A stretch of 64,000 nt of DNA. Source: an uncultured virus (IMG/VR IMGVR_UViG_3300009181_007169) (lineage: Duplodnaviria > Heunggongvirae > Uroviricota > Caudoviricetes). Shown here one piece after another: positions 11,661 to 62,975 of this stretch; position 1 is the first letter of the stretch; the number at the start of each line of letters is the position of its first letter. The DNA is taken from the IMG/VR virus record IMGVR_UViG_3300009181_007169. One strand, given 5' to 3'. The notes below the pieces were generated by a model that saw only the letters and a program-made list of their open reading frames with translations, searched no databases and was not told the DNA's origin. A program made the position numbers and the translations under genes.

Positions 11661-11684
11661 TTCTTTTTAGTTGATATTTTACCT
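11661..11684 (-). promoter_or_regulatory. SigH-like promoter AGG-N17-AGAA, 9 nt before ATG
   Basis: AGG taaaatatcaactaaaa AGAA aataatact ATG. Confidence 0.6.
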
Positions 11685-12119
11685 TCTTGGTAACAAATTT
11701 TTCCAATAATTTGGACCCTGATTAGAATCATGAGCTTCATCCCAAGTAAAGTAATCTAAACTACCATTCATTGAGGGAGAAGAGGCAAGATTACCTGGGT
11801 CTACATAAGCTGGACCAGGAACAGGATCCTCCCCATGCATTGCGCCCTCTAAATTTAATTTTTCGTCATCATCAGTATTTAAATTTCTGTAATCTGGTAT
11901 TCTCCACTTTAATTCTTCATAAAATTTTCTATCAAATTCTTGAAAATCTTTTTCATTTCTTTTCCAGGTATAAAATCTTGCAGAAAGTGGTAATTCATCC
12001 AAACTTGTTAAGTTATATGGAAAAGCAGCTAATTTAATCATTTCATTTTGAAACTTATCTGCCATTTTAAAGTTACCATTACGCTCCAATAGATCAATTG
12101 CTTTTAAAACCTCTTTCAT
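11679..12119 (-). CDS. Hypothetical protein with shared helical leader
   Basis: MKEVLKAIDLLERNGNFKMADKFQNEMIKLAA. Confidence 0.6.
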   Translation of the reverse strand: MKEVLKAIDLLERNGNFKMADKFQNEMIKLAAFPYNLTSLDELPLSARFYTWKRNEKDFQEFDRKFYEELKWRIPDYRNLNTDDDEKLNLEGAMHGEDPVPGPAYVDPGNLASSPSMNGSLDYFTWDEAHDSNQGPNYWKNLLPRR

Positions 12120-13180
12120 TAAAGAATTCCTATGCCATTATATGGGCTATTTGTCGTATCAGGGTTTTCAATTGTAGAATTTGTACCTAATGTATCATTA
12201 CCCCAAGGAGTAGAACTAACATATCCTCTTTCTGGAAATCGTCCTTTTAACCATGCGTCCCAATCTATACCATAAAACATATCTGGATCCAATCTATCAA
12301 TTCCTTTGGGTGATTTTTTGAGTTTTCTTAATTTTATTTCCAGAGGTTGATTGTTCTTTTTTGCATCATTTGTAATTTGAGAGGGCAATGGATTTAATGA
12401 ACCTTTGTAATCATGAAAAGTTTGTGATTCTTCTGGTGTATTAATTAAAAGCGTGGAATTTTGCATGTTATGGTTATCGGGGAATGTTGGATTATTTAAA
12501 TCCTTAATGTACTTATCAACCCCCATACCTAATTCGTATTGTGGAGCTATTCCAGTAAATGCCTCAGAATATTGAGCATAAGCGTAGGGATCATTTTTGT
12601 ATTCCTCCCAAGGTGTTAGCTGTTCGCTGGATGTTGGTAAAGATGTTCTCTCTCTTCTAAAAGAATCAGGACCATTTTTTTCATTGTTCAATCTTATTTC
12701 CATTGGCGCATCATCAGGATAAACCACTGACGCATGTTTAGAAAAATCTATATTTGTGTTTTTTCTAAAGTTTTCAAGCAAATCTTCTACTGTATTTAAT
12801 TTTTTGTGAATTATTTCAGTTTTGTTTTCAACATTTTTTTTTGAAAGATCTTTTATATATTGTTCTTTGTTTCTGATTTTTTGTTTAACGCTTAGTTCTT
12901 TTCTTTCTTCTGGAGATAGTAAGTATGAAGGTATATCAGATTCTAAACTTTTATGAAATGTTTCTAGCAAAGTTTCTAAAGGTCTTTCATAATCACCTAA
13001 AATTTCTGGTTTTCTGTAGCGACCCATTAAATCATCCAAAGATGTATCTCCACTAAAATTGTTAATACCATAACCTGCATATCCAGATGGACCTCCTCTA
13101 AACTGAGGTGAACCTCCCGGTGAAAAAGGTGCATATTGACCACCTACTCCTCCAAAATTTGCAAGCCTTTTACTCATCAA
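12119..13180 (-). CDS. Hypothetical head-module protein
   Basis: 353 aa; MSKRLAN followed by a Gly-rich segment. Confidence 0.6.
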   Translation of the reverse strand: MMSKRLANFGGVGGQYAPFSPGGSPQFRGGPSGYAGYGINNFSGDTSLDDLMGRYRKPEILGDYERPLETLLETFHKSLESDIPSYLLSPEERKELSVKQKIRNKEQYIKDLSKKNVENKTEIIHKKLNTVEDLLENFRKNTNIDFSKHASVVYPDDAPMEIRLNNEKNGPDSFRRERTSLPTSSEQLTPWEEYKNDPYAYAQYSEAFTGIAPQYELGMGVDKYIKDLNNPTFPDNHNMQNSTLLINTPEESQTFHDYKGSLNPLPSQITNDAKKNNQPLEIKLRKLKKSPKGIDRLDPDMFYGIDWDAWLKGRFPERGYVSSTPWGNDTLGTNSTIENPDTTNSPYNGIGIL

Positions 13181-13187
13181 AGATTAT

Positions 13188-13212
13188 TTCTAAATTAATT
13201 TGTATTTTACCT
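13188..13212 (-). promoter_or_regulatory. SigH-like promoter AGG-N18-AGAA
   Basis: AGG taaaatacaaattaattt AGAA ataatct TTG ATG. Confidence 0.55.
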
Positions 13213-15315
13213 AAAAATTCGACCAGTGTAAGCAACCCTTGATCGCGGTAATGTTTGGACAACTGAAGATTGTGAATTGCTTTCATAAATAGCAGCAGCG
13301 ACAGCATCACAAAGATCATCTTTATATGATGTTAAAGCTTCAATGATTTGTCTTCCATTTCGCCACTTCTTTTGCAGAAAAGTAAACTGATCTTTGGCTT
13401 CAACAATCTCGTTTATATCAATTATATTTCCTTTAACATCTTTAACTTTTCCAGCAGACATTTTGTAAAATTCAATTCTTTTATCTCTAAAAGCTTCTAA
13501 TAAATGCAGATAAATTTTATCTTTGTATTCTTTATTGAAAACTTTCAACACAACAGGTAAACCTTGTGCAGACAGTTTAGATATAGTTTCAGGGCTACCC
13601 CATTGATCAAAAGATATCTGTTTGAATCTAAATTTATTATGCAATTCTAAAATATATTCTTCTACTTCTCTTATAGGAACTGGTTGTTTCATTTTTAGAG
13701 GAGCCCAGAATTGCATGTGATCAACAAAGAATTTTTTGATAGGTCTACCTTGTAAATCTAATTCGCCAGTTGATACAGCGTGAACTACTGCAATTGCATA
13801 ATAATCTGATCTGTTTGCAGGATCAACATGACAATAATAATCTATTAAGCCAGGTTCTCTTAACTCTGTTCTAGTAATCTTTGTTGAATTTTCAAAAGCA
13901 TAAGCAACATCTTCTGGACTTAAGTATGGATCTTGAGAATTAGATCCAAATTCAGCTCCGTATTGCATATTGTACTCAACTGGATCTCTTCTTTTTTCAC
14001 CTTCAAGCCAAAGTTTGTCCACATTTGCATTAATTTGCCATGTTGGAAGTTTCAAAATAAGAGTCATGCTGTCTTCAAGTCTTGAATTATAAAGTGTGTA
14101 AAGTTGTCCAAATGGACCTTTAGGGTTTGATAGGCAAATAATTTTTCCATCTTTTCCAAATGTTGTTAACGATGGTTTTAAATCATTATATAATTTTTTA
14201 TCAACACCTGAATTTGGATTATCACCTGCCATAGCAGCGAGCTCATCTAAAATAATGCACCAACAAGTTTTACCAACCAATCCTGAAGCTGATGAAGAAC
14301 CACATTTTAAAATGATTGTTCCATCCAAAGGTGTTAGTCCTCTTTCTTGTCTTCTGATATTTTCTTCAATATCTCTTTCTGTTAAAAATTTCATTTCCAA
14401 AGCATTATCCACACCAATATATTTTTGAAAAAATGGAGAGGCTACAGCGCTATTTTTCATGGGTGTAAAGATTGAGTCTTTTGCTTGGTCTTCATTTTTA
14501 GCCACATTGAGTATGAAAATTTCACCAAAATCAGGCAATCTTAATTTTTTTTGTGGATGCTTCATTGACAATAGTCTGTACAGCTCGTAAAGGGCAATTG
14601 CTACAGTCATAAATGATTTACTGCCTCGACGACCAATTATTAGAACTAATTCTTGAAACTTATTGCGTAATTTCTTTTTGATTTGCATTTTTACAGCTTC
14701 ATCAGGAATTTCATCAATTAAATCCATTTCTGACTGAAAAAAATCTTCTGTGTCTTCTTCATAAATGTCTCTCAACATTTGCTCACCGTCTTTATCATTT
14801 GCGGCTTTTATTTCATGCTCTAATCTTATTTTTCTTGTTTGTAATGGGCATCTTGAGCATTTTAAACATCTTGAGTTTATTGGGGAAAGAATAGATAAAT
14901 AATTTTCTTCTTGTTCGATTGCTTTTGCACAATTATTTTCATTTTCAACTACATACTCCCAAACACAATTCTTACATCCAGCTACATCTTCTTTCTTTGT
15001 TTCATTAAATTCAACATTTGTATTACCTTCTGAACCAGCATAAAACAATTTTAATGCCAAAATTTGCCAAGGATAAGGCTTTAAATTTAAAAAGTAAGGA
15101 TGTATAATGAAAGTTTCTATATCAACAAGATTATTTTTATTGTATTTTGTTTGGTCTTTAGGCTCTGGTGGTGGAACTTCATACCTGTTTGAATATTCAA
15201 TTTCATCTATTGGCTCGCCAAAAACATTTGCAAAAAACTGTTCGAGCTTTGCAGCATCTCGAATCATTTGCTCTCTTTGCTCAATTTTTTGTTTGTTTTT
15301 ATTTTTGTTATTCAT
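13207..15315 (-). CDS. terL: Terminase large subunit
   Basis: LIIGRRGSKS (Walker A), CIILDELA (Walker B), LSNP, YGAEF, CHVDPA and KDDLCDA nuclease motifs. Confidence 0.9.
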   Translation of the reverse strand: MNNKNKNKQKIEQREQMIRDAAKLEQFFANVFGEPIDEIEYSNRYEVPPPEPKDQTKYNKNNLVDIETFIIHPYFLNLKPYPWQILALKLFYAGSEGNTNVEFNETKKEDVAGCKNCVWEYVVENENNCAKAIEQEENYLSILSPINSRCLKCSRCPLQTRKIRLEHEIKAANDKDGEQMLRDIYEEDTEDFFQSEMDLIDEIPDEAVKMQIKKKLRNKFQELVLIIGRRGSKSFMTVAIALYELYRLLSMKHPQKKLRLPDFGEIFILNVAKNEDQAKDSIFTPMKNSAVASPFFQKYIGVDNALEMKFLTERDIEENIRRQERGLTPLDGTIILKCGSSSASGLVGKTCWCIILDELAAMAGDNPNSGVDKKLYNDLKPSLTTFGKDGKIICLSNPKGPFGQLYTLYNSRLEDSMTLILKLPTWQINANVDKLWLEGEKRRDPVEYNMQYGAEFGSNSQDPYLSPEDVAYAFENSTKITRTELREPGLIDYYCHVDPANRSDYYAIAVVHAVSTGELDLQGRPIKKFFVDHMQFWAPLKMKQPVPIREVEEYILELHNKFRFKQISFDQWGSPETISKLSAQGLPVVLKVFNKEYKDKIYLHLLEAFRDKRIEFYKMSAGKVKDVKGNIIDINEIVEAKDQFTFLQKKWRNGRQIIEALTSYKDDLCDAVAAAIYESNSQSSVVQTLPRSRVAYTGRIFR

Positions 15316-16022: not shown

Positions 16023-16028
16023 AATAGA

Positions 16029-16062
16029 TTTATACAGGCTAATTCATTTTAGCCTGTATAAA
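16029..16062. terminator. Perfect 14-bp inverted repeat; probable terminator containing a GTATAAA promoter element
   Basis: TTTATACAGGCTAA-ttcatt-TTAGCCTGTATAAA. Confidence 0.6.
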
Positions 16063-16064
16063 AG

Positions 16065-18208: not shown

Positions 18209-19287
18209 AATAGTATTGTTGTTTTGTCATGGGTTAGTTTACAAATGAAGAACGATTCTTTCATGTTTATAAAATCTAAGTTAACCCAAGATGCTTGCAA
18301 GGAATCTAAACAGTCCATGAAAGTTTTAGCAATATAAGCAGAAGAAGCTTCACCATTGCAAGATTCTACTGTAACTGTTTCTTTTGCTGCCAGAGAATTT
18401 TCTTTAGATTCTAAATTCAAACTTTCATTTTTAACATTAAAGTTAACAGAAGAATCTAAAAAGACACCATTGAAAAATTTTAAAGTTTTTGATAATTCAT
18501 AAGTTGAAACTTTCACAGAAGCCTCAGATGGCTTACTGATGAATTCAAGAATCTGATTCGGAAAAGAATCTTTTTCAGCTTTTTCTATATAAATTGTTAG
18601 CTTGCAATCATTTGATTCTATATATAGGCATTTATTGTTAATACAGCATTTACTCAATGGGTTTTCGCCAAAAATGTTTTTAATAATTGCAGGAGATTTT
18701 TTAGGAATAAAAACTTCAATTGAATTTTTATTTACAATTTTTAAACTTGATTTATAAAATGATGGTCCATTAGTTGCTTTTATTTCAAAATTATCAACAT
18801 CAGCATAACAATGGATAGCAGTAAGTGGATGATCCTGGAAATTATTCGAACAAAATTTTGATGCAAAGCTTAACTTTGAAATAAACTCGTGTGGATTTTC
18901 TAATTTAAACTCTGCAACATAATCTGAACTTACATTATTTTCAAAAACAGCATCAGAAACTTGTAAACCAATTTTAGTTTTTTTATCAGAACTTGAAACC
19001 AGGCAGGATTGTTTTTCGCTATCAAAATTTAATAAAATGTAATCAGAAGATACATGCTTGACAAATTCCAAAATTGTTGCAGTTTTTACACTAAAAGAAA
19101 TATTTTCAGAGCATTCAATAAAAGAAATTGATTCTTCATAAAATGTGAAAGAGCCCTTTGTTGAAAGAATTAATTTATCATCTTGAAATAAAAACTGAGT
19201 TAATGACTCAGATGTTTTTTTCTCACAGGCATCAAAACACCGAGAAAGTGCTAATTCCAATGAATTCTTGTATAATTTCGCTTTCAT
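18190..19287 (-). CDS. dnaN: DNA polymerase III beta sliding clamp
   Basis: 365 aa three-domain pattern (HPLTAIH, ATNGPSF, FIPKKS, C-terminal LLCP); clustered with dnaX. Confidence 0.7.
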   Translation of the reverse strand: MKAKLYKNSLELALSRCFDACEKKTSESLTQFLFQDDKLILSTKGSFTFYEESISFIECSENISFSVKTATILEFVKHVSSDYILLNFDSEKQSCLVSSSDKKTKIGLQVSDAVFENNVSSDYVAEFKLENPHEFISKLSFASKFCSNNFQDHPLTAIHCYADVDNFEIKATNGPSFYKSSLKIVNKNSIEVFIPKKSPAIIKNIFGENPLSKCCINNKCLYIESNDCKLTIYIEKAEKDSFPNQILEFISKPSEASVKVSTYELSKTLKFFNGVFLDSSVNFNVKNESLNLESKENSLAAKETVTVESCNGEASSAYIAKTFMDCLDSLQASWVNLDFINMKESFFICKLTHDKTTILLCPTTF

Positions 19288-19954
19288 GTAAATTAATATA
19301 CGTTGTTATACCGACATTAATTTGCGAATGCGTAGATAAATAAACTTGATATGTTTCATTGGATTTTTTACGAATTCTCATAAGAGCATTATCTACTGTT
19401 TTTGGTTTTACATCAAGTGCTTTAGCAATATCTTTGTATGAAGAATTAAACGCATACTGTGTGAAAATAGACATTTCAAGTTTAGTTAGTTTGTCTGAAA
19501 TTAATTCTAGATTGGTATCAAATTCTTCTTGAATAATAAAGTTCTCAAGTAAATCCGAATTATGATCAGGTATGTAGTCAGCATAAGTTTGAACTCCATC
19601 TTCTTCGTTTTGAGACACAGGCGCGCTCAAACTTACTGCTTCATTTTGTAATTTAAATTTCTGAGTATTGGCATGCGACATTGCAGTAATTAAATGCCTT
19701 TTACAACATAAACTTAAACTAAAGTTTTTAAAAGTCATCCCCATTGAATCATCAAAATCTTTCACTGCTTTCCAAACACCAATTCGACATTCTTGAATTA
19801 CATCATTTTCATCGCTTCCTACGATGTAATATTTATGGGCTAATTTTTTGATGTCTGAGTCGAGAATTTCTAAAATTTGATCAAATGACCTTTGATCACC
19901 ATTTTTAGCTTTAACGACAAGAGCGTGAAGAATTTGATCTGTTTCAACCATCAA
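19232..19954 (-). CDS. sigH: SigH-like sigma factor
   Basis: YYIVGSDENDVIQECRIGVWKAVKDFD...FKNFSLSLCCKRHLITA...QKFKLQNEAVSL...SYKDIAKALDVKPKTVDNALMRIRKK closely follows the sigma-H pattern; likely start ATG 19951. Confidence 0.85.
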   Translation of the reverse strand: MMVETDQILHALVVKAKNGDQRSFDQILEILDSDIKKLAHKYYIVGSDENDVIQECRIGVWKAVKDFDDSMGMTFKNFSLSLCCKRHLITAMSHANTQKFKLQNEAVSLSAPVSQNEEDGVQTYADYIPDHNSDLLENFIIQEEFDTNLELISDKLTKLEMSIFTQYAFNSSYKDIAKALDVKPKTVDNALMRIRKKSNETYQVYLSTHSQINVGITTYINLHESEIIQEFIGISTFSVF

Positions 19955-44472: not shown

Positions 44473-44652
44473 ATGCCTATAGTTAAAATTGACAGAGACA
44501 TTGTTCTTGATAAAATATACGAATGTAGAGGCAAAATTGATTTTACTAATTCTGAAGCCTTAAAGAAAATTAGTGAACTTGTTGATCTTATTGTACACGC
44601 ACAAGATGCTGAAAACCAAGCTGTGTACCCAAAAATTAAAATTGGACGATGA
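44473..44652 (+). CDS. 59-aa hypothetical protein (below the ORF-track cutoff)
   Basis: MPIVKIDRDIVLDKIYECRGK...KIKIGR; promoter motif at the fixed spacing, stop overlaps the next start. Confidence 0.6.
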   Translation: MPIVKIDRDIVLDKIYECRGKIDFTNSEALKKISELVDLIVHAQDAENQAVYPKIKIGR

Positions 44653-44909
44653 ATATTTTTGAATTTGTCAATTATTTAGATAAAAAGGGCTTGTATGATC
44701 TTGCAGATCAAGCTGAAAAGAAAATTTTTGCGGCTAATTTTAGCCTCACAAAAAAGAAAGTGACACCGCAGCAACAACTTAATAATAAATTAGATGCACT
44801 CAATACTCAAATAATAGATATGAAAACACAAATGGAAAATTCTGACATGGCTGAAGGTGATACAAAAATAATGCTCGATGACAAACAAGTGGAATTCAAA
44901 GAAAAATGA
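44649..44909 (+). CDS. Hypothetical protein with shared helical leader
   Basis: MNIFEFVNYLDKKGLYDLADQAEKKIFAA. Confidence 0.6.
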   Translation: MNIFEFVNYLDKKGLYDLADQAEKKIFAANFSLTKKKVTPQQQLNNKLDALNTQIIDMKTQMENSDMAEGDTKIMLDDKQVEFKEK

Positions 44910-48149: not shown

Positions 48150-48431
48150 ATGCTCAGAATTGCTCAAATTGTAGAACAAAGTATTCAAGAATATAAAAGT
48201 GGAAATATTGTTTTAGCTGAAAGAATGCTAGATTTTGCTTTGCGATTAGCTAAGAAGAAAAAATCGCCTGAATACAAAGGTACATCAAAAAATGTTCCAA
48301 CTAATATGGAACTTTACAACCGTGTAAAATCTGAGGCTAAAAAGAAATTTGATGTTTACCCTAGCGCTTATGCAAATGCCTGGGTTGTTAAAACATATAA
48401 ATCAAGAGGCGGAGGTTATCGCAAAAAGTAA
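48150..48431 (+). CDS. Basic viral protein, N-terminal part of a DUF5872-like domain, with leader
   Basis: PTNMELYNRVKSEAKKKFDVYPSAYANAWVVKTYKSRGGGY. Confidence 0.55.
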   Translation: MLRIAQIVEQSIQEYKSGNIVLAERMLDFALRLAKKKKSPEYKGTSKNVPTNMELYNRVKSEAKKKFDVYPSAYANAWVVKTYKSRGGGYRKK

Positions 48432-49009
48432 TGAACATTTTTCGTGAAGCTGATCTCAAAAAATGGTTTGATGAAGAGAAGTGGGTTGATGTCTCAAGAC
48501 CTAAAAAAGGAGGAGGCTATGAAGAATGTGGTCGATCTGATGCTGATAAAGGTAAATATCCAGTTTGTACCCCAGCTTCTAAAGCAAAAACTTTAGACGA
48601 AAAAGAAAGAAAAAATAGAATTAAAGCAAAACGAAAAAACGAAAAAAAGAAACGAAAAGGCAAAAGCCCACACATGACAAATTACACTCCTTCACAAGGA
48701 GGCAAATCTAACCCAAAAACTGCCAGTAATAATTTTGTTGAAAAACTTGTAAAATCAGAAGGGATCAAAATAGAAACATCTTTTAAAAATTGCCTAAAAA
48801 TGTATCATGATCATTTTTTTGATTTAAAAGGAAGTTGGGAATTTGATGACTTATTGACACCACAAATGATTGAAAAATTATTCCCAAGGGAAGTGTTAAA
48901 TCTTCCTGTAATTATTGATGGTAAGCATGTTGTTATTGATATTCCAAATACTGGAGTAGAGGTTTTTAATATGATTCCAGAGTATTTGATAAATACAACA
49001 ATGAGGTAA
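48431..49009 (+). CDS. Basic viral protein, C-terminal part of a DUF5872-like domain
   Basis: LKKWFDEEKWVDV...CGRS...YPVCTP. Confidence 0.55.
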   Translation: MNIFREADLKKWFDEEKWVDVSRPKKGGGYEECGRSDADKGKYPVCTPASKAKTLDEKERKNRIKAKRKNEKKKRKGKSPHMTNYTPSQGGKSNPKTASNNFVEKLVKSEGIKIETSFKNCLKMYHDHFFDLKGSWEFDDLLTPQMIEKLFPREVLNLPVIIDGKHVVIDIPNTGVEVFNMIPEYLINTTMR

Positions 49010-50778: not shown

Positions 50779-51765
50779 ATGGCTATTTCTGATACAAGTT
50801 TTTTTAATTCTTATCAAGCTACTATTGGTACAGCTTATGCCAAAGGGTTTGATGAAGTATATAATCCATCTTCAACACTTATTACTTATATAGCATCTAG
50901 ACAACTTTTTTTAGCTAGTATGTCTACCACAGAAGTGGCAAATGGTATAAGTGTAGTTAATGCACATTTATCAAACGAAAATACTTACTCTACTGGTGCA
51001 TTAAATATTGCAAAAACCGTAAATCAAACTTTAAACAATTTTTTTAATAATACCTATTCTTCAAGCCTTAGAGATTGGTTTAATGGATTAAGAATAACAA
51101 GAAATATTCCGTGGCAAAATTCATATAAAGAATCTTGGTATCAAGCTAACGCCCAAGAACTTGTTCAACAAATTGGGTTTGCATCATTCAATGGATCTAG
51201 CTTAATTTTTTATCCAGCAACATCCGCTATTACTAATAAACAAAATATAGCCTCAATTTCAACAGTTTCTGGCAATAATGTAACTATTTCTGGTTTTTCG
51301 CCTGTTTCTAATTTTGCTATGAATGGTGATATTATTATAGCTTCAACAGCAAGCGGATTACCAAGTTCTTCACAAATATCTTTATCAACTTCTGTTGTAG
51401 GTTTATATAACACTAACACTATTACACTGTCTGGTCCAATTAGCACATCAACGACTACTCTTTTTGCTTTCAGACCCTTGAAAAACACAGAATACTTGGA
51501 ATTTAGATTTGGCACAGCCGCTATCACAGGATCTGCAGCTACTAGTATCTTTTCTACAATCGGAATTACAGTTTATCTTTCAACAGGGGTTACCACTTTG
51601 GTCACGTTGTCCCCCGCAAACAACACTGGAAGGTTAAATATAGGTATTTATAATAATTCAACTTATAGAGCAACAGGTATTACTTCTATGGGCATCACTT
51701 CTGGATCAATTAATGGGCTTGGTACAATTAAGTCTTTAGAAGTGTGGGTGAAATCAACTAACTGA
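50779..51765 (+). CDS. Ser/Thr-rich probable virion structural protein
   Basis: 328 aa, S/T/G/N rich, low charge. Confidence 0.55.
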   Translation: MAISDTSFFNSYQATIGTAYAKGFDEVYNPSSTLITYIASRQLFLASMSTTEVANGISVVNAHLSNENTYSTGALNIAKTVNQTLNNFFNNTYSSSLRDWFNGLRITRNIPWQNSYKESWYQANAQELVQQIGFASFNGSSLIFYPATSAITNKQNIASISTVSGNNVTISGFSPVSNFAMNGDIIIASTASGLPSSSQISLSTSVVGLYNTNTITLSGPISTSTTTLFAFRPLKNTEYLEFRFGTAAITGSAATSIFSTIGITVYLSTGVTTLVTLSPANNTGRLNIGIYNNSTYRATGITSMGITSGSINGLGTIKSLEVWVKSTN

Positions 51766-52033
51766 TATCATTGTATAAATCAGCATAATGTGGTAAACCT
51801 AAATCATCAAATAATTGAGCAACTTTTAAGTAGTTAACAACCTCAGAAGTTTTTTTCTTTTCTTTTCTTTTCTTTTCTGAGCCAGGATTTTCTTTGTAAA
51901 ATTGTTTCCAAGCTGTACCATAAGCAATGTCATACATTTTTTCTTCAGACATTTTTTTCTTGCTTTTTTTCATTTTTTCAACAATTGCATCAGCAACTTC
52001 ATCAACTCTGTGTGGTACATTTTTTCTTGGCAT
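51758..52033 (-). CDS. Small basic protein, ChaB-like, with C-terminal copy of the leader motif
   Basis: Start MPRKN with GGAG SD; EEKMYDIAYGTAW; YLKVAQLFDDLGLPHYAD. Confidence 0.5.
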   Translation of the reverse strand: MPRKNVPHRVDEVADAIVEKMKKSKKKMSEEKMYDIAYGTAWKQFYKENPGSEKKRKEKKKTSEVVNYLKVAQLFDDLGLPHYADLYNDIS

Positions 52034-52058
52034 TTTTCTACTTGCTCCTATTGTTTCT

Positions 52059-52082
52059 TTCTTAAAAATAACCAAATTACCT
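52059..52082 (-). promoter_or_regulatory. SigH-like promoter AGG-N17-AGAA
   Basis: AGG taatttggttattttta AGAA. Confidence 0.55.
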
Positions 52083-53389: not shown

Positions 53390-53575
53390 ATGATTAAGGT
53401 AGTAGCAAGACAAAATGAAAATATCGATTCTCTTCTTAGAAGATTCAACACAGCTGTTGTTCAAGATGGAGTTCTAAAAGAACTTAAGGATCGCTCAAGA
53501 TATGAAAAACCTTCTGTAAAAAAACGAAGAAAAGCAATGGAAAGAAGAAAAGAACTGAAAAATCCTGTAAAATAA
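53390..53575 (+). CDS. rpsU: Ribosomal protein bS21
   Basis: MIKVVARQNENIDSLLRRF...GVLKELKDRSRYEKPSVKKRRK. Confidence 0.92.
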   Translation: MIKVVARQNENIDSLLRRFNTAVVQDGVLKELKDRSRYEKPSVKKRRKAMERRKELKNPVK

Positions 53576-54441: not shown

Positions 54442-54801
54442 ATGAGCTTAGTAGAATTATTTCTGACATTACAAAATCAACTTAGAATTTATCATTGGCA
54501 AACAGAAAGCTATGCGGAACATAAAGCTCTTGGTAAAGCATATGAAAAATTAGATGACTTAATTGACTCGTTCATGGAAATTTACATAGGTAAATACAAA
54601 AGACCAGTGGCAAAAGATAAATTTGAAATTTCATTATTTAATTATTCAAATAATTTCAAAGAAAATATTGATGCTTATATTGAAGTGTTAGAAGACAAAA
54701 TTCCAGCAGCTCTCAATGAAAAAGATACAGATTTACTTAACATTAGAGATGAAATGCTTGGTACTCTCAATCAACTAAAATATCTTCTTACACTAAAATA
54801 A
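54442..54801 (+). CDS. Ferritin/Dps-like four-helix protein (DUF5856-like)
   Basis: YHWQTESYAEHKAL...LDDLIDSFME...LLNIRDEM...YLLTL. Confidence 0.75.
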   Translation: MSLVELFLTLQNQLRIYHWQTESYAEHKALGKAYEKLDDLIDSFMEIYIGKYKRPVAKDKFEISLFNYSNNFKENIDAYIEVLEDKIPAALNEKDTDLLNIRDEMLGTLNQLKYLLTLK

Positions 54802-54871: not shown

Positions 54872-56266
54872 TTATGCAACAACAGCAGTAGATGGCTGAC
54901 CCGAAGTAATTGGAACAGATTTATCAGACTGTGTTGTTGGTGTTGTTATTGGTGTTTTTGGAGCAACCGGAGCAGATTGTGTAATAGGCTTTAGAAGCTG
55001 ATTTCTTAAGTAAGCCCCCACTTTATTTGGATCTTCGAACTGATTGTTCATTACCATATTTTTAAAATTATTGTTAATTGTTTTTCTGTCTTTCATTTGA
55101 ATCAGTTGATTACTAGCTAATAAATCTTTTGGAGATAAATCAGATTGTGTAATAGTTGGTTGCAATCTTTTGGCTTCGTTGAAAGCGTACCCATTTGACA
55201 AAGAACAAATTAAATCAACACTAAAGCCAATACTTAAACAAATTACAGACCAACCAAGTGAACTTCCACTTGTTAAAGCTACTACCGCAGGTATTTTGAA
55301 AACAATTTGAAGTACATTAAATAAAAAATTTAAAAAATAACAAACTTTTGATCCTGGACTTCCGGTTTTATTTTGAAATTGATTATAGAGGCTTATGAAA
55401 CTCGTGAGCCCATCAACAACGCTAAAAGCTTCAGATAACATCGTTTTTATCACTGGGACACTAAAAACATTTCCCAACCCAGGTATTATTTTTACACAGT
55501 TATGTAATTGTTCTGCAATTTTTTCAATTAAATTTACAGCTTTGGCTGATAAATTTGGTTTAGCAGCGTTGACAGCTACTTCAATATCTTTTGATAATTG
55601 TTGTGTAGTCGTTTTTTGTATTTTTGCTATTTGTGGCAATACTTCTTTATAATTTTTGCCTTTTGCCACAGCTTTAATTGAATCAATTATTTTTGGATCT
55701 TTCAAGGATTTTATATAAATTAAAATTTGTGGGTCAATTGTGCTAGCAAATAAAAAAATTATTTTATTTGCTTCTGAATAAACACTTTTAACTTGTTTTT
55801 TGTAACTTTTAGCCAATTGTTTTAAAATTGCATCATATTTTCCTAAAAGCTGTACATTATTTTGTTTTTTAGCTATAGCATACATAGTCCCAGCTTCTTT
55901 AGCATCATTCAATACAATTTTTCTAAAAATATCTGCGTTGTATAATGCATTTGCTCTTTGCGAATAAGCTTCTGCGCCTGTCAATGCTAGAGGTTTTAAT
56001 ATTCCAAGGTTTTGTAATGTATTTTTGGTACCACCGCCACCACCAGTACCACCGCCACCAGTGGTACCACCGCCGAAAATTCTTTCTGCGTCTAGTTGAG
56101 TTTTTTTAAGACTATTCTCTTCTTGAGGTCCTGCTTCTCTCACCATCCCCAACACAATCTGATCAATTTTGGAAGCCAGTTTAGGGTTTTTAATATCCAA
56201 CTCGTTTGCATAGGAAAGCAAATCTGATATATTATTTTGTTGCATGCATGGAACACAAACTGACAT
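54872..56266 (-). CDS. Hypothetical protein with leader, Gly-rich linker and hydrophobic hairpin
   Basis: LLSYANELDIKNPKLASKIDQI...MVREAG; GGGTTGGGGTGGGGG; hydrophobic YFLNFL...IGFSVDL region. Confidence 0.65.
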   Translation of the reverse strand: MSVCVPCMQQNNISDLLSYANELDIKNPKLASKIDQIVLGMVREAGPQEENSLKKTQLDAERIFGGGTTGGGGTGGGGGTKNTLQNLGILKPLALTGAEAYSQRANALYNADIFRKIVLNDAKEAGTMYAIAKKQNNVQLLGKYDAILKQLAKSYKKQVKSVYSEANKIIFLFASTIDPQILIYIKSLKDPKIIDSIKAVAKGKNYKEVLPQIAKIQKTTTQQLSKDIEVAVNAAKPNLSAKAVNLIEKIAEQLHNCVKIIPGLGNVFSVPVIKTMLSEAFSVVDGLTSFISLYNQFQNKTGSPGSKVCYFLNFLFNVLQIVFKIPAVVALTSGSSLGWSVICLSIGFSVDLICSLSNGYAFNEAKRLQPTITQSDLSPKDLLASNQLIQMKDRKTINNNFKNMVMNNQFEDPNKVGAYLRNQLLKPITQSAPVAPKTPITTPTTQSDKSVPITSGQPSTAVVA

Positions 56267-56275: not shown

Positions 56276-56328
56276 TTACACAATCTGATTCAATTTACCT
56301 CCAAGGTAAAAAAGTAAAATAATTAGAA
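56276..56328. promoter_or_regulatory. Back-to-back divergent SigH-like promoters, each 9 nt before its start codon
   Basis: Minus AGG(56300)-N18-GTAA-N9-ATG(56266); plus AGG(56304)-N18-AGAA-N9-GTG(56338). Confidence 0.65.
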
Positions 56329-56337
56329 AATAAACTT

Positions 56338-56925
56338 GTGGTTAAACTTGACATTCCAAAAGAGCTTCCTAAAAATAAACTTGAAAAAGCAGGTGTTTCA
56401 AAAAAAACTAATGAGGAGCATCTAAAGCTCTGGCAAGGCTATGCCAAAAACAATAACAAAGCTGTAGAGGCTTTAAACCAAAGAAAAAATCTTAAAAACG
56501 TTAATTCCACTTTTTCAGAGGTGAGAAATCAAAAAATGGGATTATCTTTTGCATATGGCGGATTTCTTAACCACAAAGTGTTTTTCAATCATCTTAATGG
56601 AGATGGTGAGCCCACTAAAGAGTTTCTTGCATTAATAAAAGCAGATTATGATAGTTTTTCTAATTATATTAATGATTTAAAAGCCACCGCACTTGCCTCA
56701 AGAGGCTGGTCATTTATTGGATACTGCTATGACCACGAGATGATAATTAATGTAATTGGAGATACACAAAATACATTTCCTATGTGGAATTGTGAGCTTA
56801 TTGGAGCCATAGACATGTACGAGCATGCTTACTTTCCAGATTTTGGCACTGACCGAGAAGGCTACATTGATGCAATCCTAGAAATTATGGATTGGAACCA
56901 AGTGGTGAAAAATATCAGGAATTAA
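56338..56925 (+). CDS. Fe/Mn superoxide dismutase
   Basis: EEHLKLWQGY, NHKVFF, RGW, DMYEHAY.DFG. Confidence 0.9.
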   Translation: MVKLDIPKELPKNKLEKAGVSKKTNEEHLKLWQGYAKNNNKAVEALNQRKNLKNVNSTFSEVRNQKMGLSFAYGGFLNHKVFFNHLNGDGEPTKEFLALIKADYDSFSNYINDLKATALASRGWSFIGYCYDHEMIINVIGDTQNTFPMWNCELIGAIDMYEHAYFPDFGTDREGYIDAILEIMDWNQVVKNIRN

Positions 56926-56927: not shown

Positions 56928-57575
56928 ATGAAAAATCTTCTTATTAAAATTGCCTCAATTGCTACAGAGCTTGATAATAATGGGCTTGAAAAAGAAGCTA
57001 AACAAATGCATAGGATATTTTTAAAAATTGCAGAAAGCCCTTTAAGAATTCATAGATTCCAAGTTGAACTTAAAGATGCTCAAGAAGGATTAATACAAGC
57101 AGAAAATGCATATTTTAGAGAAATGGAAAAAATGCAAAATCAAGAGTATTATGACGAATTTTTATCTTCACCTCAACCCTTTGAGTTTTCAAGAAAAATA
57201 GTATGGGCTGGAACATTATTGGCTAGAAAAGATCAAGCTGAAGAAAGATTAAATAACGCGTTAGAGGGTTTGAAAAATGAAGGGGTAGAGCAAATATTCA
57301 AACCAAAACATGCTAAACGACCAAAAGTATCTCCTGAAAAAGCAGAATTGTTTGAATACCTTGCAAGAAATTTTTTAGAAGAAAATAAACGCGATGAAGA
57401 TTATAAATCAAAAATTAAAATGGAAAGTGATCAAGAACTTGAAAATAAAAACCTAGCTTTAAGACAAAGACAGCAAGAAGAACAGAGAAAAATAGATGAA
57501 AAAGAGAAGCAAATTCAAGAACAAAGAGATTTTCATGCAAATTTCTATGCTAACAGTGACGAGCCAGTGATGTGA
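56928..57575 (+). CDS. Hypothetical charged helical protein with shared leader
   Basis: Likely start ATG 56928: MKNLLIKIASIATELDNNGLEKEAKQMHRIFLKIAE. Confidence 0.65.
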   Translation: MKNLLIKIASIATELDNNGLEKEAKQMHRIFLKIAESPLRIHRFQVELKDAQEGLIQAENAYFREMEKMQNQEYYDEFLSSPQPFEFSRKIVWAGTLLARKDQAEERLNNALEGLKNEGVEQIFKPKHAKRPKVSPEKAELFEYLARNFLEENKRDEDYKSKIKMESDQELENKNLALRQRQQEEQRKIDEKEKQIQEQRDFHANFYANSDEPVM

Positions 57576-57576
57576 A

Positions 57577-58041: not shown

Positions 58042-58094
58042 ATTAATTTAATATACGAATGAAAACATCAATTTTTCGCCCGATTATTTTCAAA

Positions 58095-58119
58095 AGGAAT
58101 TTAATCTAAAGACATCTAA
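58095..58119 (+). promoter_or_regulatory. SigH-like promoter AGG-N18-CTAA, 9 nt before GTG
   Basis: AGG aatttaatctaaagacat CTAA tataaaact GTG. Confidence 0.55.
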
Positions 58120-58128
58120 TATAAAACT

Positions 58129-58542
58129 GTGTGGTATAAATTTAGTCAATTGAAAACACCCTTGAAGCTACCTGATGGTAGTGTTTATATCCCAGAACAA
58201 TCAGCAATTAAAAACCCTGCTGCGGTGCAACAACTTACAGGTTTTACTTATGAGCAGTTACCAAAATCTACTGGAGCTGCGCCTACACCTGTGATGCAAC
58301 CAGCACAAACAACTAATAAATCCACCGCCTTAGAGCCACAAAAAAGAGAAACTGTTCCAATGAATAGTAATTTTATACCCTCTGATGCACAAGTACAAAA
58401 TGCCTCTAAGCAAATGCAAACAGAAATGTTTGGAAGAGCAAATCAATTTGGACCCACCGCTCAAGAGTTAAAAAGATACCTTGAAGGTAAACCATCTGTG
58501 CCTGGAGGTTTAGGCTCAGGGCAATTGGTTGTTGAAAAATAA
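58129..58542 (+). CDS. Hypothetical P/Q-rich protein with WYKFSQ leader
   Basis: MWYKFSQ start. Confidence 0.6.
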   Translation: MWYKFSQLKTPLKLPDGSVYIPEQSAIKNPAAVQQLTGFTYEQLPKSTGAAPTPVMQPAQTTNKSTALEPQKRETVPMNSNFIPSDAQVQNASKQMQTEMFGRANQFGPTAQELKRYLEGKPSVPGGLGSGQLVVEK

Positions 58543-58543
58543 A

Positions 58544-58568
58544 AGGTTCAATATTCGAAAAAATATAA
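58544..58568 (+). promoter_or_regulatory. SigH-like promoter AGG-N18-ATAA, 9 nt before GTG
   Basis: AGG ttcaatattcgaaaaaat ATAA ataaagatt GTG. Confidence 0.6.
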
Positions 58569-58577
58569 ATAAAGATT

Positions 58578-61235
58578 GTGTATAAATTCAGTTCCATTTC
58601 AAAATATTTTGACAATTTTAATTTAGTGTTGAATAATATTCACCAACTTATTACAAATGACAATTTCTTGAATGTAATTCAAGCAGAAAGTTTTTTAAGA
58701 GATTATTTATTAAGTGAAAATAATCAGAATAAAAGTAATTATGAATCAAAATTATTGTTATGGACAGATGTTCACTCAGAAATTAATTCATTATTTAATG
58801 ATTGTGTTTTAGAATCTAAAGCGCTAAATTTACAGATACCTGTGCAAATTGATTATAATCCTAATAAAAAAGTGGGTGGCTCAGCAAAAGTAGATGGAAC
58901 TATAAGTATTAATGGTGCTTCACTTAAAAATCAATCAATATCATCACTTAAATCAAATTTAGCTCATGAAATTACACATGTTCTCAGTAAGATACAAAGC
59001 AAAAAAAGTGACTGGTGGCGCAATGAAGCTCTCTTAGATGCAACAGACATAAAACATCAAAGTCAATTGCCCCCAGAAATGACACAATTCGGAAGATATT
59101 ATTACCAAAGCCCAGAAGAAGCAAGGGCGAATTTACAGGCTTTGATAGAACAATATCATTTATCTTTAACAAAAGAAAAAATTAAAGAAAAAGCATTAGA
59201 AGATGGTATTTCTTATGATGAAGAAGTGAAAAAAATAATATTTAAGATTATTAAAGAATTTACAGAAAGACATGTTAAAAACAAATCTTCGGAAGAACAT
59301 CCTTTTGGACCAGAGTATTTAAATATTATAAGAAAAGGGCTTTATGATTATATTCATCAACAAAAAGGCTTAAAACCAATAGAAAATATCCCAGCACCTC
59401 TTCAATTAATTATTCAAAACGCTTACAGTGATTTCAATAATGAAAAATATAGAATGGGGCATATTAAAGCTTATGAAAATCTTTTAATGAAATTAAAAGA
59501 AATATCAGGTAAAACTTCAGGAGCTACTTTAAGAAGTAACCAAAAATTTCTTCAACCTTATGTTGAAGATGTTGAAAAGAGATTAGAAATGTTAAGACAA
59601 AAAATGAAATCTACTGAAAATAATAATACTTTTTCTTCATCATTCAATTTTAAAAAGTATAGTGAGTCTAAAAAAAAACTTGAAATTTACTTACCAGATT
59701 ATGTGGATGATATCTTAAAAGATATTACACAATCTGGTGGTAAAGCTTTAATAGTTGGTGGTGCTGTTAGAGATGCTATTTTAGGTAAATCTCCAAAAGA
59801 TATTGATTTTGAAGTTTATAGATTGTCTTATGATCAATTAAATAATATTTTATCAAAATATGGCAAAGCAGACCTTGTAGGTCAAATGTTTGGTGTAATT
59901 AAATTTGTAGGTAAAGATGGATCTGATTTTGATTTCTCTCTTCCAAGAAAAGATTCTAAATCAGGTGTTGGACATAAAGATTTTAGCGTGGAAATAAGTG
60001 GCGATCTCACACCTATAGAAGCCGCAGCAAGAAGAGACTTTACCATTAATGCTATTTCTTATGACCCAATTACCCATGAAATTGTAGACCCATTTAATGG
60101 AAGAGCTGATCTTGAAAATAAAATTTTAAGGCATACATCTAATGCCTTTTCTGAAGATCCGCTCAGAGTGTTGAGAGGAATGCAATTTGCTTCTAGATTT
60201 GGATTTGAAATAGCACCAGAAACTGCAAAATTAGCAGAATCCATTAGAGATGAATTTAAACATCTTCCTAAAGAAAGAATTTATGAAGAGTTCAAAAAAC
60301 TTGTAACTAAAGGCATTGAACCTGGTAAAGCTTTAGATTTTCTTTACTCTACTGGGTGGTCTAAAAACTTCCCTGAAATACACGATCTAAAAGACACACC
60401 TCAAGACCCTGAGTGGCATCCTGAAGGCGATGTTTCTACTCATACCGCTTATGTTATGAACGAAGCAGCTAGAATTGCTGATAGAGAAAATTTAAGCCCT
60501 GAGGATAGAGAAGTGCTTATTTACGCAGCATTGGCGCATGACTTTGCTAAACCTGAAACTACAGCAGTGATTAATAAAAAAGGTAAAGACAGAATTACCT
60601 CTCATGGACATGAAGAATTGGGTGGACCTAAAGCTGAATCTTTCTTAAAATCAATTGGTGCACCAAATGATGTTATTAAAAAAGTAATTCCCTTGGTGCA
60701 ATTTCATTTAAGCCATATTCATCACTCAAATACATCAAAACAAGAATCTTTTGTTAAAAACTTGGCTGAAAAGATTTACCCCTCTAATATTAAAATGTTA
60801 GAACTTTTAATAGAAGCTGATCATTCAGGCAGACCACCTCTTCCTAAACATCTTCCAGAACAAGCAAGAGAAATGTCTGAATTAGCTAAAAAATTTAATG
60901 TTTATGAAGGTAAACATCCTGACCTACTTCAAGGCAGAGACATTATGCCCTATCTGAATAATAAAGGTGGACCAATAATCGGGCAAATTTTAAAAGAACA
61001 TAGAAATTTAATTCTTAATCATGATCCTAGAATGACTGATAGAGAATCCGCGCTAAAATGGCTTTCCAATAGAATGCAAAGAGAAGCAGCATTCATAAAT
61101 GGACATGATGTTCTAAATTACACAAACTATACAGGATCTAAAATAAAAGAAATTTTAGATCAAGCATGGGAAGCTCAATTGAGAAAAGAATTAAATTCTA
61201 GAGAAGAAGCAATTGATTGGCTTAAACAACAATAA
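58578..61235 (+). CDS. cca: Fusion: HExxH zincin-like domain + tRNA nucleotidyltransferase (CCA-adding) with HD domain
   Basis: LAHEITH; VGGAVRD, KDIDFE, RRDFTINA, EDPLRVLR, ERI, WHPEG, LAHDFAK, HGHE. Confidence 0.9.
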   Translation: MYKFSSISKYFDNFNLVLNNIHQLITNDNFLNVIQAESFLRDYLLSENNQNKSNYESKLLLWTDVHSEINSLFNDCVLESKALNLQIPVQIDYNPNKKVGGSAKVDGTISINGASLKNQSISSLKSNLAHEITHVLSKIQSKKSDWWRNEALLDATDIKHQSQLPPEMTQFGRYYYQSPEEARANLQALIEQYHLSLTKEKIKEKALEDGISYDEEVKKIIFKIIKEFTERHVKNKSSEEHPFGPEYLNIIRKGLYDYIHQQKGLKPIENIPAPLQLIIQNAYSDFNNEKYRMGHIKAYENLLMKLKEISGKTSGATLRSNQKFLQPYVEDVEKRLEMLRQKMKSTENNNTFSSSFNFKKYSESKKKLEIYLPDYVDDILKDITQSGGKALIVGGAVRDAILGKSPKDIDFEVYRLSYDQLNNILSKYGKADLVGQMFGVIKFVGKDGSDFDFSLPRKDSKSGVGHKDFSVEISGDLTPIEAAARRDFTINAISYDPITHEIVDPFNGRADLENKILRHTSNAFSEDPLRVLRGMQFASRFGFEIAPETAKLAESIRDEFKHLPKERIYEEFKKLVTKGIEPGKALDFLYSTGWSKNFPEIHDLKDTPQDPEWHPEGDVSTHTAYVMNEAARIADRENLSPEDREVLIYAALAHDFAKPETTAVINKKGKDRITSHGHEELGGPKAESFLKSIGAPNDVIKKVIPLVQFHLSHIHHSNTSKQESFVKNLAEKIYPSNIKMLELLIEADHSGRPPLPKHLPEQAREMSELAKKFNVYEGKHPDLLQGRDIMPYLNNKGGPIIGQILKEHRNLILNHDPRMTDRESALKWLSNRMQREAAFINGHDVLNYTNYTGSKIKEILDQAWEAQLRKELNSREEAIDWLKQQ

Positions 61236-61494
61236 TTATTTGAACATTTTAAATTTTAACACAATCTTAAAATGTTTTCATAACACTTTTTTGGAAAATA
61301 AAATTGTGAAAAGAAATTTTGTAATATCATTATTAGCATGCGGTGTAGTTATTACGTATATTATGAACCAGAAGAAGAAAAATGAATCGAATACACAATA
61401 TTTTATCAATAAAGCTACAATGCTTTCTGATGATTTAGAAAGAAAAATTCTTGAAAAACAATATGAAAATAATACCATCAATAACAACATCTAA
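61213..61494 (+). CDS. Small membrane protein (start uncertain)
   Basis: FVISLLACGVVITYIM hydrophobic stretch. Confidence 0.4.
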   Translation: MIGLNNNNYLNILNFNTILKCFHNTFLENKIVKRNFVISLLACGVVITYIMNQKKKNESNTQYFINKATMLSDDLERKILEKQYENNTINNNI

Positions 61495-62128
61495 TTTTGA
61501 AATCACTGATATACAATTGAAAGAAATACAAAACTCTGATCTGAGAGAATTCGGGCTTTTTTTAACAGGTATGCATTTTAAAGAGGATCGAATGAATCTT
61601 ATGAAAAAATTGAAAGATTTGGAAGATTGTGTTATTCCGCTTGTGCATATTAGAGTGGATTCTACTCCAGAAGAATTAGAATTTTGTTTGGAAAATTTCA
61701 AAACAGAATGGTTCAATCTTCATGGTATTCATAAAGATGTTTTAATTAATAATCAAGAACTCTATGAATATAGACATTATATCCTTGCTGAAAATTCTAG
61801 AATTTTGACAAAATTACAATTAGAACATTTTGCAGGAATTTGTCTTGATTTATCACATTTCTTAGAAGATCTTATTAATAGAAGAAACCATGTGCATGAA
61901 ATTAAAGAATCTTTGAAAATGTTTCCAGTGTATTGTAACCACATTTCAGCAGTGAGAAAAGATCAAAAAAATTGGTACTCAGAACATATTGGCAACTATT
62001 CTTCAGATTTTAATTATTTGAAAGAAATACCTAAAGAATATTGGGGATCATGTTGCTCGTGCATGGAACTCGAAAATTCAATCAAAAAACAAATGGAATA
62101 TATTGAATACATTAAAACAATTGTATAA
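61451..62128 (+). CDS. Xylose-isomerase/AP-endonuclease-2-like TIM barrel protein
   Basis: LAEN, ICLDLSH, NHIS, MELE metal-ligand pattern. Confidence 0.55.
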   Translation: MKNNMKIIPSITTSNFEITDIQLKEIQNSDLREFGLFLTGMHFKEDRMNLMKKLKDLEDCVIPLVHIRVDSTPEELEFCLENFKTEWFNLHGIHKDVLINNQELYEYRHYILAENSRILTKLQLEHFAGICLDLSHFLEDLINRRNHVHEIKESLKMFPVYCNHISAVRKDQKNWYSEHIGNYSSDFNYLKEIPKEYWGSCCSCMELENSIKKQMEYIEYIKTIV

Positions 62129-62137
62129 TTCTACAAT

Positions 62138-62443
62138 ATGTACATTACTAAAAATATTTCATTCAATGAAAGAGAAATCTATTCCTTTATAGAACTTACC
62201 ACAGGTGTGAGATATTTGCCATCACAAATTAAAATTGTTCCATCATACAATGTGGCAGAAAAAACTACATTGAATTTTGTCTGCACACACTCAAATACAC
62301 AAACTATCTTAACTCTTGAAGAACTTCTAGAATGCATAGGATACTCAAGATCCTATGCAAACGTTAAAATCACCTATAATAAACCCTGGTGGAAATTTTT
62401 TGGTAGAAAAATTATTGGCTTCTCAGTAGATGTTAAGATTTAA
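62138..62443 (+). CDS. Hypothetical protein
   Basis: 101 aa; KPWWKFF; GTATAA upstream. Confidence 0.55.
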   Translation: MYITKNISFNEREIYSFIELTTGVRYLPSQIKIVPSYNVAEKTTLNFVCTHSNTQTILTLEELLECIGYSRSYANVKITYNKPWWKFFGRKIIGFSVDVKI

Positions 62444-62519
62444 TTAATTTTTTAATTAAAGACCCAAGCACCATTATGATAAAATCCGCATTCTTGTTCG
62501 TTGATTTTAGTGGTTAAAA

Positions 62520-62975
62520 CTACTGCCAATCCGACAGCCCCATAAGTCTCAACTGTTTTTTCATCTTGTTTGATATATTTGGATTCATGTCAAGAGCATA
62601 CCAATCTACATAATCTTCAAATTCATTAATAAATTTGTCAGAAAGTGGTTGTTTTCGTGAAATTTGTTCCCAATCCAGCCTGTCTGCGAATTCACGAATA
62701 AAATCCTCAGAAAGTATTGGTTTAGATGAAATATAATTCCAACCTTTCTGGTCTATACTGTCTGCATTTTCTCTAATATACTCTTCAGATAATTTTTTGT
62801 AGTAATCAAGATTTTTCCACTTACCAGGTAATTTTTCTCTATCACTCATTCCATTTTCTTCTTCAGCTAATTTCAAAAGGATGGAATCCATCGCTTTTGC
62901 TTCTTTAGTAAGTCCTGCATAGTCAAGCTCTGTGGCAACAGAAGCAATCTTTCTCATCAGATTGTGTTTGTTCAT
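62520..62975 (-). CDS. Trp-repeat protein (LSEDFIREF..LDW) with shared leader
   Basis: MRKIASVATELDYAGLTKEAKAMDSILLKLAE then three LSE/DxFI...W repeats. Confidence 0.7.
   Translation of the reverse strand: MNKHNLMRKIASVATELDYAGLTKEAKAMDSILLKLAEEENGMSDREKLPGKWKNLDYYKKLSEEYIRENADSIDQKGWNYISSKPILSEDFIREFADRLDWEQISRKQPLSDKFINEFEDYVDWYALDMNPNISNKMKKQLRLMGLSDWQ

Follow-up and report, generated by a model that had tools for sequence, protein, structure and literature searches.

We analysed a window of 64,000 nucleotides from the genome of an uncultured virus of the Caudoviricetes (IMG/VR record IMGVR_UViG_3300009181_007169), in which an original prediction, made from the sequence alone, had noted a helical leader shared by seven otherwise unrelated proteins and had read it as a capsid-targeting signal. 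The motif shared by the seven proteins is real. It corresponds to a predicted two-helix hairpin of 35 residues that recurs at the N-terminus, in the interior and at the C-terminus of proteins in related viruses and in databases, and it is followed, more often where cargo lies downstream, by a [KR]-x-A triplet that is also enriched in the head proteins of these phages. We favour, on balance, a reading in which the hairpin would be a tag for loading proteins into the head, to be removed by the prohead protease.

All seven segments were found in the window at the stated coordinates (Table 1). For comparison we used the relatives G001-G005, G011 and G014, with G001 (347 kb, 99% complete, terminase 84% identical to that of the window) as reference; genes in these genomes were called by an in-house codon-usage script, so some of their starts are approximate. 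A profile trained independently of the window, on 46 copies from G011 and G014 (six of 52 having been dropped for bodies resembling any window protein), ranked six of the seven proteins 1 to 6 among 75 window proteins, and the score of each of these six copies was reached by zero or one of 7,500 shuffled proteins. The same six came out on top with a second profile, which was built from 161 database copies and restricted to the 28-residue core. The bodies of the seven proteins are unrelated to one another, the best BLASTP match among them having an E value of 0.016. The seventh copy, in open reading frame (ORF) 48150, is weak when taken alone, but canonical copies are found in its orthologues from G011 and G014; its DUF5872 neighbours were uninformative, being mostly short basic proteins without a leader. 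ORF 11679-12119 has orthologues in G001-G005, G011 and G014, and those of G011 and G014 have canonical copies as well. The copy in 44649 and its three orthologues lack the terminal K-x-A. A leave-one-out test with the seven window copies placed 56928, 62975 and 44649 at rank 1 and did not recover 12119, 51758 or 48150; because the window alone is too small for testing seven copies, this test was underpowered and the independent training sets were used instead. Self-iterated profiles, which contain their own hits, served for inventories only.

AlphaFold2 modelled the module as two helices, at residues 2-17 and 21-35, with a predicted local distance difference test (pLDDT) score of 96. Sequence and profile searches matched it to no Pfam, PHROG, NCBIfam or natural PDB family, and Foldseek searches of the PDB and BFVD returned nothing at an E value of 0.001, the only hits being non-significant hairpins and tetratricopeptide repeats (TPRs); the fold bears a weak, non-significant likeness to the C-terminal hairpin of UvrB and to a Rop-like bundle. 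In the ESM Atlas, three unnamed clusters of 31-39 residues at 0.79-0.85 were taken as a lead only. The module shares with the TPR a two-helix unit of about 34 residues. Nevertheless, it matches no TPR family profile, a single one of 35 members hitting TPR_6 at an E value of 0.09, and most copies are single or paired rather than set in arrays of three or more adjacent repeats.

Searched against 1.84 billion cluster representatives, the module profile matched 397 at an E value of 0.001. The best 150 of these were examined, and five long repeat proteins were dropped as TPR-like, three of them seen as such and two judged from length and repeat count. The remaining 145 proteins held 219 copies, 110 of them N-terminal, 75 internal, 26 C-terminal and 8 solo, with A12, L15, D16, G19 and A24 conserved at 88-100% in N-terminal, internal and C-terminal copies alike. 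Up to four copies occur per chain, some in tandem, and there are module-only tandem proteins, predicted to fold as four helices (pLDDT 83). After masking of the module, 126 bodies fell into 97 families, and 134 of 141 scanned carriers had no Pfam family at an E value of 1e-4. Since N-terminal, internal, C-terminal and tandem copies occur, the module is a portable domain and not just a leader; the original description, which spoke of an N-terminal leader with one C-terminal copy, was right about a shared tag on unrelated bodies and too narrow as to its positions.

To relate the module to the triplet, we used the core-only profile, which omits the K-x-A columns, and counted [KR]-x-A within 14 residues after the module. 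The triplet followed 35 of 52 N-terminal copies (background 8.3%), or 26.5 of 40 at family level; among copies classed as internal it followed two of three, and among C-terminal copies none of five. Single-copy database hits over-represent the triplet owing to the way in which they were discovered, and the database comparison was therefore made within 69 multi-copy proteins. There, [KR]-x-A followed 55 of 95 copies with cargo downstream but 11 of 47 without (P = 8e-5), "without cargo" meaning that the next element is another copy or the C-terminal end; seven copies with too short a tail were set aside. K-x-A is also found within the module, at positions 10-12 (57/110) and 22-24 (87/110), and the module often has it three times, 12 residues apart. 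Of the proposed modular address tag cut at K-x-A, the modularity, the shared code, the dependence of the triplet on cargo and the presence of cargo domains of the injected-protein type gained indirect support, whereas the leader form needs amending.

The tandem arrangement bears on a different account, in which the module serves self-association: paired copies would hold the tagged proteins together in a network or inner body that starts from tagged core genes such as 12119, the K-x-A sites would dissolve it at maturation, and most bodies would be structural filler rather than injected effectors. Copies that are tandem, internal and as many as four per chain fit this account, as do the scarcity of Pfam families among the carriers and the faint resemblance to the UvrB hairpin and the Rop-like bundle. 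It stays a live alternative because module-only tandem proteins fold, by prediction, as four helices. However, K-x-A is rare between tandem copies (3/24) and common ahead of cargo, enzymatic bodies of the injected-protein type bear the hairpin, and both bodies and copy number turn over fast between genomes (60 copies in 44 families). We therefore regard self-association as unlikely.

The window is part of a jumbo phage genome (31.6% guanine plus cytosine, one tRNA). Besides the prohead protease gene at its left edge, it has genes for a terminase, a portal, ribosomal protein S21 and two sigma factors, as well as a replication block. The capsid gene falls outside the window and the capsid protein was therefore taken from G001; its closest cultured match is gp27 of phage G (49%; PDB 6WKK), followed by proteins of Rhodococcus, Gordonia and Bxz1-like mycobacteriophages (24-27%). 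The protease of the window and its relatives matches phage G gp19 at 38-41%, and the portal, too, is homologous to that of the phage G module (gp14). Judged from these three homologies, the window phage is a jumbo phage with a head of the phage G/Bxz1 type.

When triplet enrichment was ranked among 400 spaced residue pairs, R-x-A came first in 11 head-module proteins of G001 (38 against 14.9 expected, z = 6.5) and K-x-A third (55 against 33.8, z = 4.2), while neither was among the top six pairs in replication proteins. In the window, the six proteins most enriched in [KR]-x-A were 7692, 6873, 5004 and 9523, which took the first four places, the portal and 16065. Cultured phages with this head type gave similar results. 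In phage G gp4-21, K-x-A ranked first (47 against 21.9 expected), as compared with rank 208 in control genes; in LE2-3, R-x-A and K-x-A took ranks 1-2; in Bxz1 they took ranks 3-4, with R-x-A mildly raised in the control genes as well (rank 14); and in Tunturi_5, K-x-A ranked first in the head genes but likewise first in the downstream comparison block. The sites have a conserved layout. All 30 protease sequences have [KR]-x-A at residues 40, 264 and 305, flanking the catalytic domain, and further sites recur across the variable scaffold part of the protease; the scaffold has a mean of 13.5 sites, one of them 97% conserved and 42 residues before the C-terminal end; the portal has a site, 100% conserved, just past its core; and the capsid protein has a mean of 2.4 (30 sequences). 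This pattern makes it probable that [KR]-x-A is the site of the prohead protease. The cleavage specificity of the prohead proteases of phage G, Bxz1, Tunturi_5 and LE2-3 is not described in the literature searched. In phage G itself, several small genes of the head region (gp8-gp20; locus L043) start with a basic R/K-R-L-I/K-K/S leader ending near K-x-A/S, possibly a short tag in a cultured phage.

Several observations on the head genes stand apart. The portal of the window carries a DUF559/Vsr-like nuclease domain at its C-terminus, after a Pro/Gly linker and the invariant K-x-A site. A DUF192 gene (window 9171-9539), almost devoid of K-x-A sites, is kept within the head cluster in G001, G011 and G014. 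In a more distant group (L331, L332 and L335, from G092, G086 and G091), the capsid proteins are extended at the N-terminus by about 45 residues, which include a K-Y-A triplet and form a candidate propeptide.

The module was matched in 24 of 35 records having this capsid type, with 5-17 copies in those whose completeness and capsid protein identity are both 70% or more; inventories with a refined, self-trained profile counted 13 genes in G001, 24 in G014 and 27 in G011, so that one genome carries the module up to about 27 times. A profile search found no match in seven records whose capsid proteins are 40-55% identical. In the reverse direction, viral records were picked by the module alone and then checked for head genes. 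Eleven such records, with 1-18 copies each, were obtained; five have this protease and four this capsid protein, including the sole near-complete record, the others being fragments of 5-67%. The capsid proteins read, three in number, are 38-40% identical to that of G001, and in one record the hairpin lies within head-cluster genes on both sides of the protease gene. GTDB yielded one weak locus, not confirmed by the profile, and in that search the module was not confirmed in cellular genomes. The module thus occurs in viruses and goes with this head family, in which it is unevenly distributed, and restriction of the module to phages of this head type, among viral records in which head genes were found, is supported indirectly.

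This distribution also bears on whether the hairpin acts in the head at all. As a lone TPR-like repeat it might instead be a cytoplasmic adaptor, docking unrelated proteins on a phage or host factor such as a chaperone, a protease, the membrane or a replication site, in which case K-x-A would be a helix-end preference or a site of timed activation outside the head. The TPR-like fold and the TPR false positives speak for such a role, as do bodies with DnaJ or endolysin annotations and the fact that phage G assembles heads with a related protease and without the hairpin. Yet the triplet depends on what comes after the module and equals the code of the head proteins, and the module stands in head-cluster genes of several lineages while cellular genomes gave no confirmed copy, all of which leaves the adaptor rather improbable.

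The bodies behind the module were examined by a domain scan of 95 tagged proteins from the relatives (66 of 82 hairpin carriers and 29 of 33 short-leader genes). Hairpin cargo includes GH108 (two proteins), LysM, ART-PolyVal, PcfJ and DnaJ domains. The short leader, mostly M/V-W-Y-[KR]-x-A/S, is a second one that starts 33 genes across the relatives, with examples in the window at 4687-5001 and 58129-58542; its cargo includes ART-PolyVal, InPase, PcfJ and three CCA-adding enzymes, and its genes are clustered with hairpin genes in tandem arrays (G011, G014). Bodies swap between the two: the phrog_3532 repeat stands behind the hairpin in window ORF 62975 and behind a short VWY leader in four genes of G001, and a further exchange is listed in Table 1 (48431-49009). 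InPase and ART domains are described, in the accessible part of an earlier study, as likely packaged (PMC5512222). In the fused CCA-adding enzyme of the window (58578-61235), the HExxH and CCA domains are joined by the linker F-N-F-K-K-Y-S, which also occurs in 6073-6876; the leaders of its homologues suggest a packaged tRNA-repair enzyme. The junctions ahead of the phrog_7595 domain were inspected in the best 80 of 547 loci, and the hairpin was searched for in 45 records. In four loci the domain is preceded by K/R-T-A/S with the hairpin at the gene start; elsewhere the junctions are W-A, I-x-A or x-x-E, and the hairpin was found in none of the 41 other records searched. These junctions, in phages without the hairpin (L146-L224), suggest other head-protease codes. 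Interspersed with the tagged genes of the window are those for ribosomal protein S21 (53390-53575), a Dps/ferritin-like DUF5856 protein (54442-54801) and an Fe/Mn superoxide dismutase (56338-56925). Elsewhere (L337 and L333, G086), a third recurring peptide, K-I-A-x-x-R-N-Y, starts several small genes and follows one hairpin copy.

The original prediction had also placed all seven genes at or downstream of a SigH-like promoter. In the window, the consensus had eight matches against 4.8 expected, and at least eight were seen in 13 of 100 shuffles; the match at 11657-11685 is at the 3' end of gene 12119, where it serves the gene that follows. An AGG-N17-GAAAATA-like motif was modestly enriched upstream of tagged genes in G011 (P = 0.002) and G014 (P = 0.025), borderline in G001 (P = 0.05) and not enriched in the window (P = 0.43). 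The promoter model, derived by expectation-maximization, is loose, and a pattern picked by eye from these same upstream regions, present in 7 of 31 as against 40 of 635, is partly circular. The promoter claim thus gains some ground from G011 and G014 but does not rise above chance in the window. Such motifs raise the idea that the leader is a by-product of gene shuffling, the late promoter, ribosome-binding site and first 35 codons being copied as an expression cassette and the protein level playing no part in addressing. Near-identical leaders on adjacent genes in tandem arrays (G011 145-151 kb, G001 71 kb) and the upstream enrichment would follow from this. The motif is, however, kept between clades that have 38-40% identity in capsid protein, and a cassette cannot explain internal and C-terminal copies, because A12, L15, D16, G19 and A24 are kept there at 88-100%. 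A cassette is, in our view, very improbable.

Returning to the head-loading tag, which we favour, the module would address proteins to the assembling prohead of jumbo phages of the phage G/Bxz1 type. From a module shared by unrelated bodies, the fold predicted for it and the [KR]-x-A code that it has in common with the head-assembly proteins, all found computationally, we infer late expression, docking, cutting and ejection, in the following order. Tagged proteins would be made late; the hairpin would then dock on the scaffold core, on the inner face of the capsid or on other hairpins, with extra copies adding avidity; next, cleavage by the prohead protease behind the Ala of [KR]-x-A would break down the scaffold and set the cargo free, and a module with K-x-A at a spacing of 12 residues could be chopped small enough to leave; finally, the freed bodies would remain in the head, some being ejected with the DNA. 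The short MWY[KR]xA leader would be an interchangeable second tag. A fuller version, to which we commit ourselves only tentatively, sees in the lone TPR-like hairpin a natural domain for addressing proteins to the capsid, one that would work independently of position, at either end of a chain or within it. Multiplied for avidity, swappable with MWY[KR]xA and freed by an Ala-specific head protease, it would load 20-40 fast-changing proteins per genome to be delivered upon infection, among them ADP-ribosyltransferases, lysozymes and a tRNA CCA-repair enzyme.

Several results weigh against head loading. The terminal site is missing from one third of the N-terminal copies (17 of 52). The hairpin shape is generic, five TPR-like proteins having appeared within the top 150 hits, one of which likewise ends in K-I-A. 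As annotated endolysins, the GH108 proteins do not have to be packaged. The hairpin was found in none of the four cultured phages tested (phage G, Bxz1, Tunturi_5 and LE2-3), and the distribution is patchy because records with capsid identities of 40-55% gave no match while others at 38-40% did. Moreover, [KR]-x-A is invariant inside mature folds too (capsid protein residue 27, portal 321, decoration protein 106), and its presence is thus not enough to mark a cleavage site. Derivation of the module from the scaffold's own hairpin was considered and found unsupported, hhalign against the scaffold C-terminus of this clade giving E values of 0.19-0.54. One complex prediction, of capsid protein, scaffold C-domain and hairpin, scored 0.00 and weighs neither way.

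The hairpin copies of the window are listed with neighbouring features in Table 1. Among other genes of the relatives, G001 L023:15103-16134 encodes a protein with a prepilin-type N-terminal methylation domain. In style it resembles proteins of Armatimonadota or Planctomycetota, which may hint at the host.

Table 1. Hairpin copies and other features of the window; bits are scores with the profile trained on G011 and G014, followed by the number of shuffled proteins reaching that score
Feature	Position	Strand	Remarks
Prohead protease fused to scaffold-like region, cut by window edge	1..1941	-	phage G gp19 38%; conserved [KR]-x-A bracket catalytic domain; protease domain at 1132-1941
Portal protein with C-terminal DUF559 domain	2268..4610	-	[KR]-x-A kept in 30/30 sequences at G001 residue 585
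Block of [KR]-x-A-rich putative core/scaffold genes, including 7692, 6873, 5004, 9523	4687..11202	-	several start with short K/R-x-A leader
Hairpin module ending K-L-A on ORF 11679-12119	12027..12119	-	17.7 bits, 0/7,500; conserved gene within terminase-portal cluster
Terminase large subunit	13207..15315	-	
SigH-like sigma factor, candidate late sigma factor	19232..19954	-	below curated cut-off
Hairpin module, N-terminus of ORF 44649-44909	44649..44735	+	21.1 bits, 0/7,500; terminal K-x-A absent from its family
Strongly diverged hairpin ending R-L-A on DUF5872 protein 48150-48431	48150..48251	+	1.5 bits, 147/7,500, rank 9 of 75; orthologues with canonical copies
Protein with short R-E-A leader	48431..49009	+	leader swap: G014 orthologue has two hairpin modules instead
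Truncated hairpin copy at C-terminus of ORF 51758-52075	51761..51853	-	7.4 bits, 1/7,500
Diverged hairpin module (one-residue deletion in turn) ending R-E-A, near N-terminus of ORF 54872-56266	56132..56242	-	8.1 bits, 1/7,500
AAGG-N19-GAAAATA promoter-like site ahead of superoxide dismutase gene preceding 56928	56303..56332	+	consensus match only
Hairpin module ending K-I-A, N-terminus of ORF 56928-57575	56928..57032	+	21.2 bits, 0/7,500
CCA-adding enzyme fused behind N-terminal HExxH domain	58578..61235	+	G003, G005, G014 homologues start with short WY[KR] leader
Hairpin module ending K-L-A, N-terminus of ORF 62520-62975	62865..62975	-	10.3 bits, 0/7,500; body is phrog_3532 repeat

The systems that come closest to a head-loading hairpin are compared here within the parts of the cited papers that are openly accessible. 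In phage T4, the capsid targeting sequence (CTS) of IPI-III and the Alt propeptide are removed by gp21; the tag has 10 residues, is N-terminal, is cut after L/I-x-E and is found on three or four proteins (PMC9026906). Both systems have a shared tag on unrelated proteins, with an ADP-ribosyltransferase among the cargo, and in both the tag ends in a head-protease motif that also riddles the scaffold, here in about two thirds of N-terminal copies. The module differs in being a folded unit, by prediction, of 35 residues, also internal, C-terminal and multi-copy, linked to [KR]-x-A and present in up to about 27 genes per genome, with a function that is predicted. In phiKZ-like phages, exemplified by the propeptide of SPN3US gp245 with its motif A-x-E, one protease likewise processes many head proteins and propeptides hold several copies of the motif; these propeptides, however, have 20-254 residues, are not described in the accessible text as one shared domain, have Glu at P1 and belong with another capsid family (PMC10052503). 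The layout of sites in protease, scaffold and portal is the same here as for the Glu-specific proteases of T4 and SPN3US (PMC9026906, PMC10052503).

The heads of phage G and Bxz1-like phages are homologous to those of the window group in capsid protein (49% and 24%), protease and portal, and their head genes are enriched in K/R-x-A, but the hairpin was not found in them. Herpesvirus assemblin is likewise a protease-scaffold fusion with self-cleavage sites, Ala at P1 and a site near the C-terminal end of the scaffold; here P3 would be Lys or Arg, and no sequence homology was detected. Phage polyvalent proteins have ART-PolyVal and InPase domains, proposed in the accessible part of their description to be packaged and injected, and these domains occur on tagged genes here, though as separate small genes with a common tag and not in one giant polypeptide (PMC5512222). 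In the literature searched, mostly without subscription papers and bioRxiv supplements, we found no description of the module or of a K/R-x-A prohead protease; neither module nor code is described in the accessible parts of PMC12484599, PMC7824862 and bioRxiv 10.64898/2026.10.24.761521.

If the head-loading reading is right, the proteins packaged and injected by a large group of uncultured jumbo phages, in which almost all carriers lack annotation, could be predicted from the tag in their sequence alone; it would extend capsid targeting beyond the 10-residue peptide of T4 to a folded, position-independent domain and would offer a new handle by which very large capsids could be loaded. The cultured phages G, Bxz1, Tunturi_5 and LE2-3 allow the [KR]-x-A code to be tested directly.

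A further parallel is the scaffolding protein of phage P22, whose C-terminal helix-turn-helix (residues 268-303) is essential for capsid assembly; it is a two-helix hairpin of 36 residues, and fusions to truncated scaffold load foreign cargo (PMC9962691). It has one natural carrier, unlike the module, and PDB sequence and Foldseek searches found no match between the two, so the P22 hairpin is a functional analogy only. To our knowledge, the P22 scaffold system operates without a protease. The most economical reading is that the module would work like the T4 CTS and be built like the P22 scaffold hairpin, as a member of neither family.

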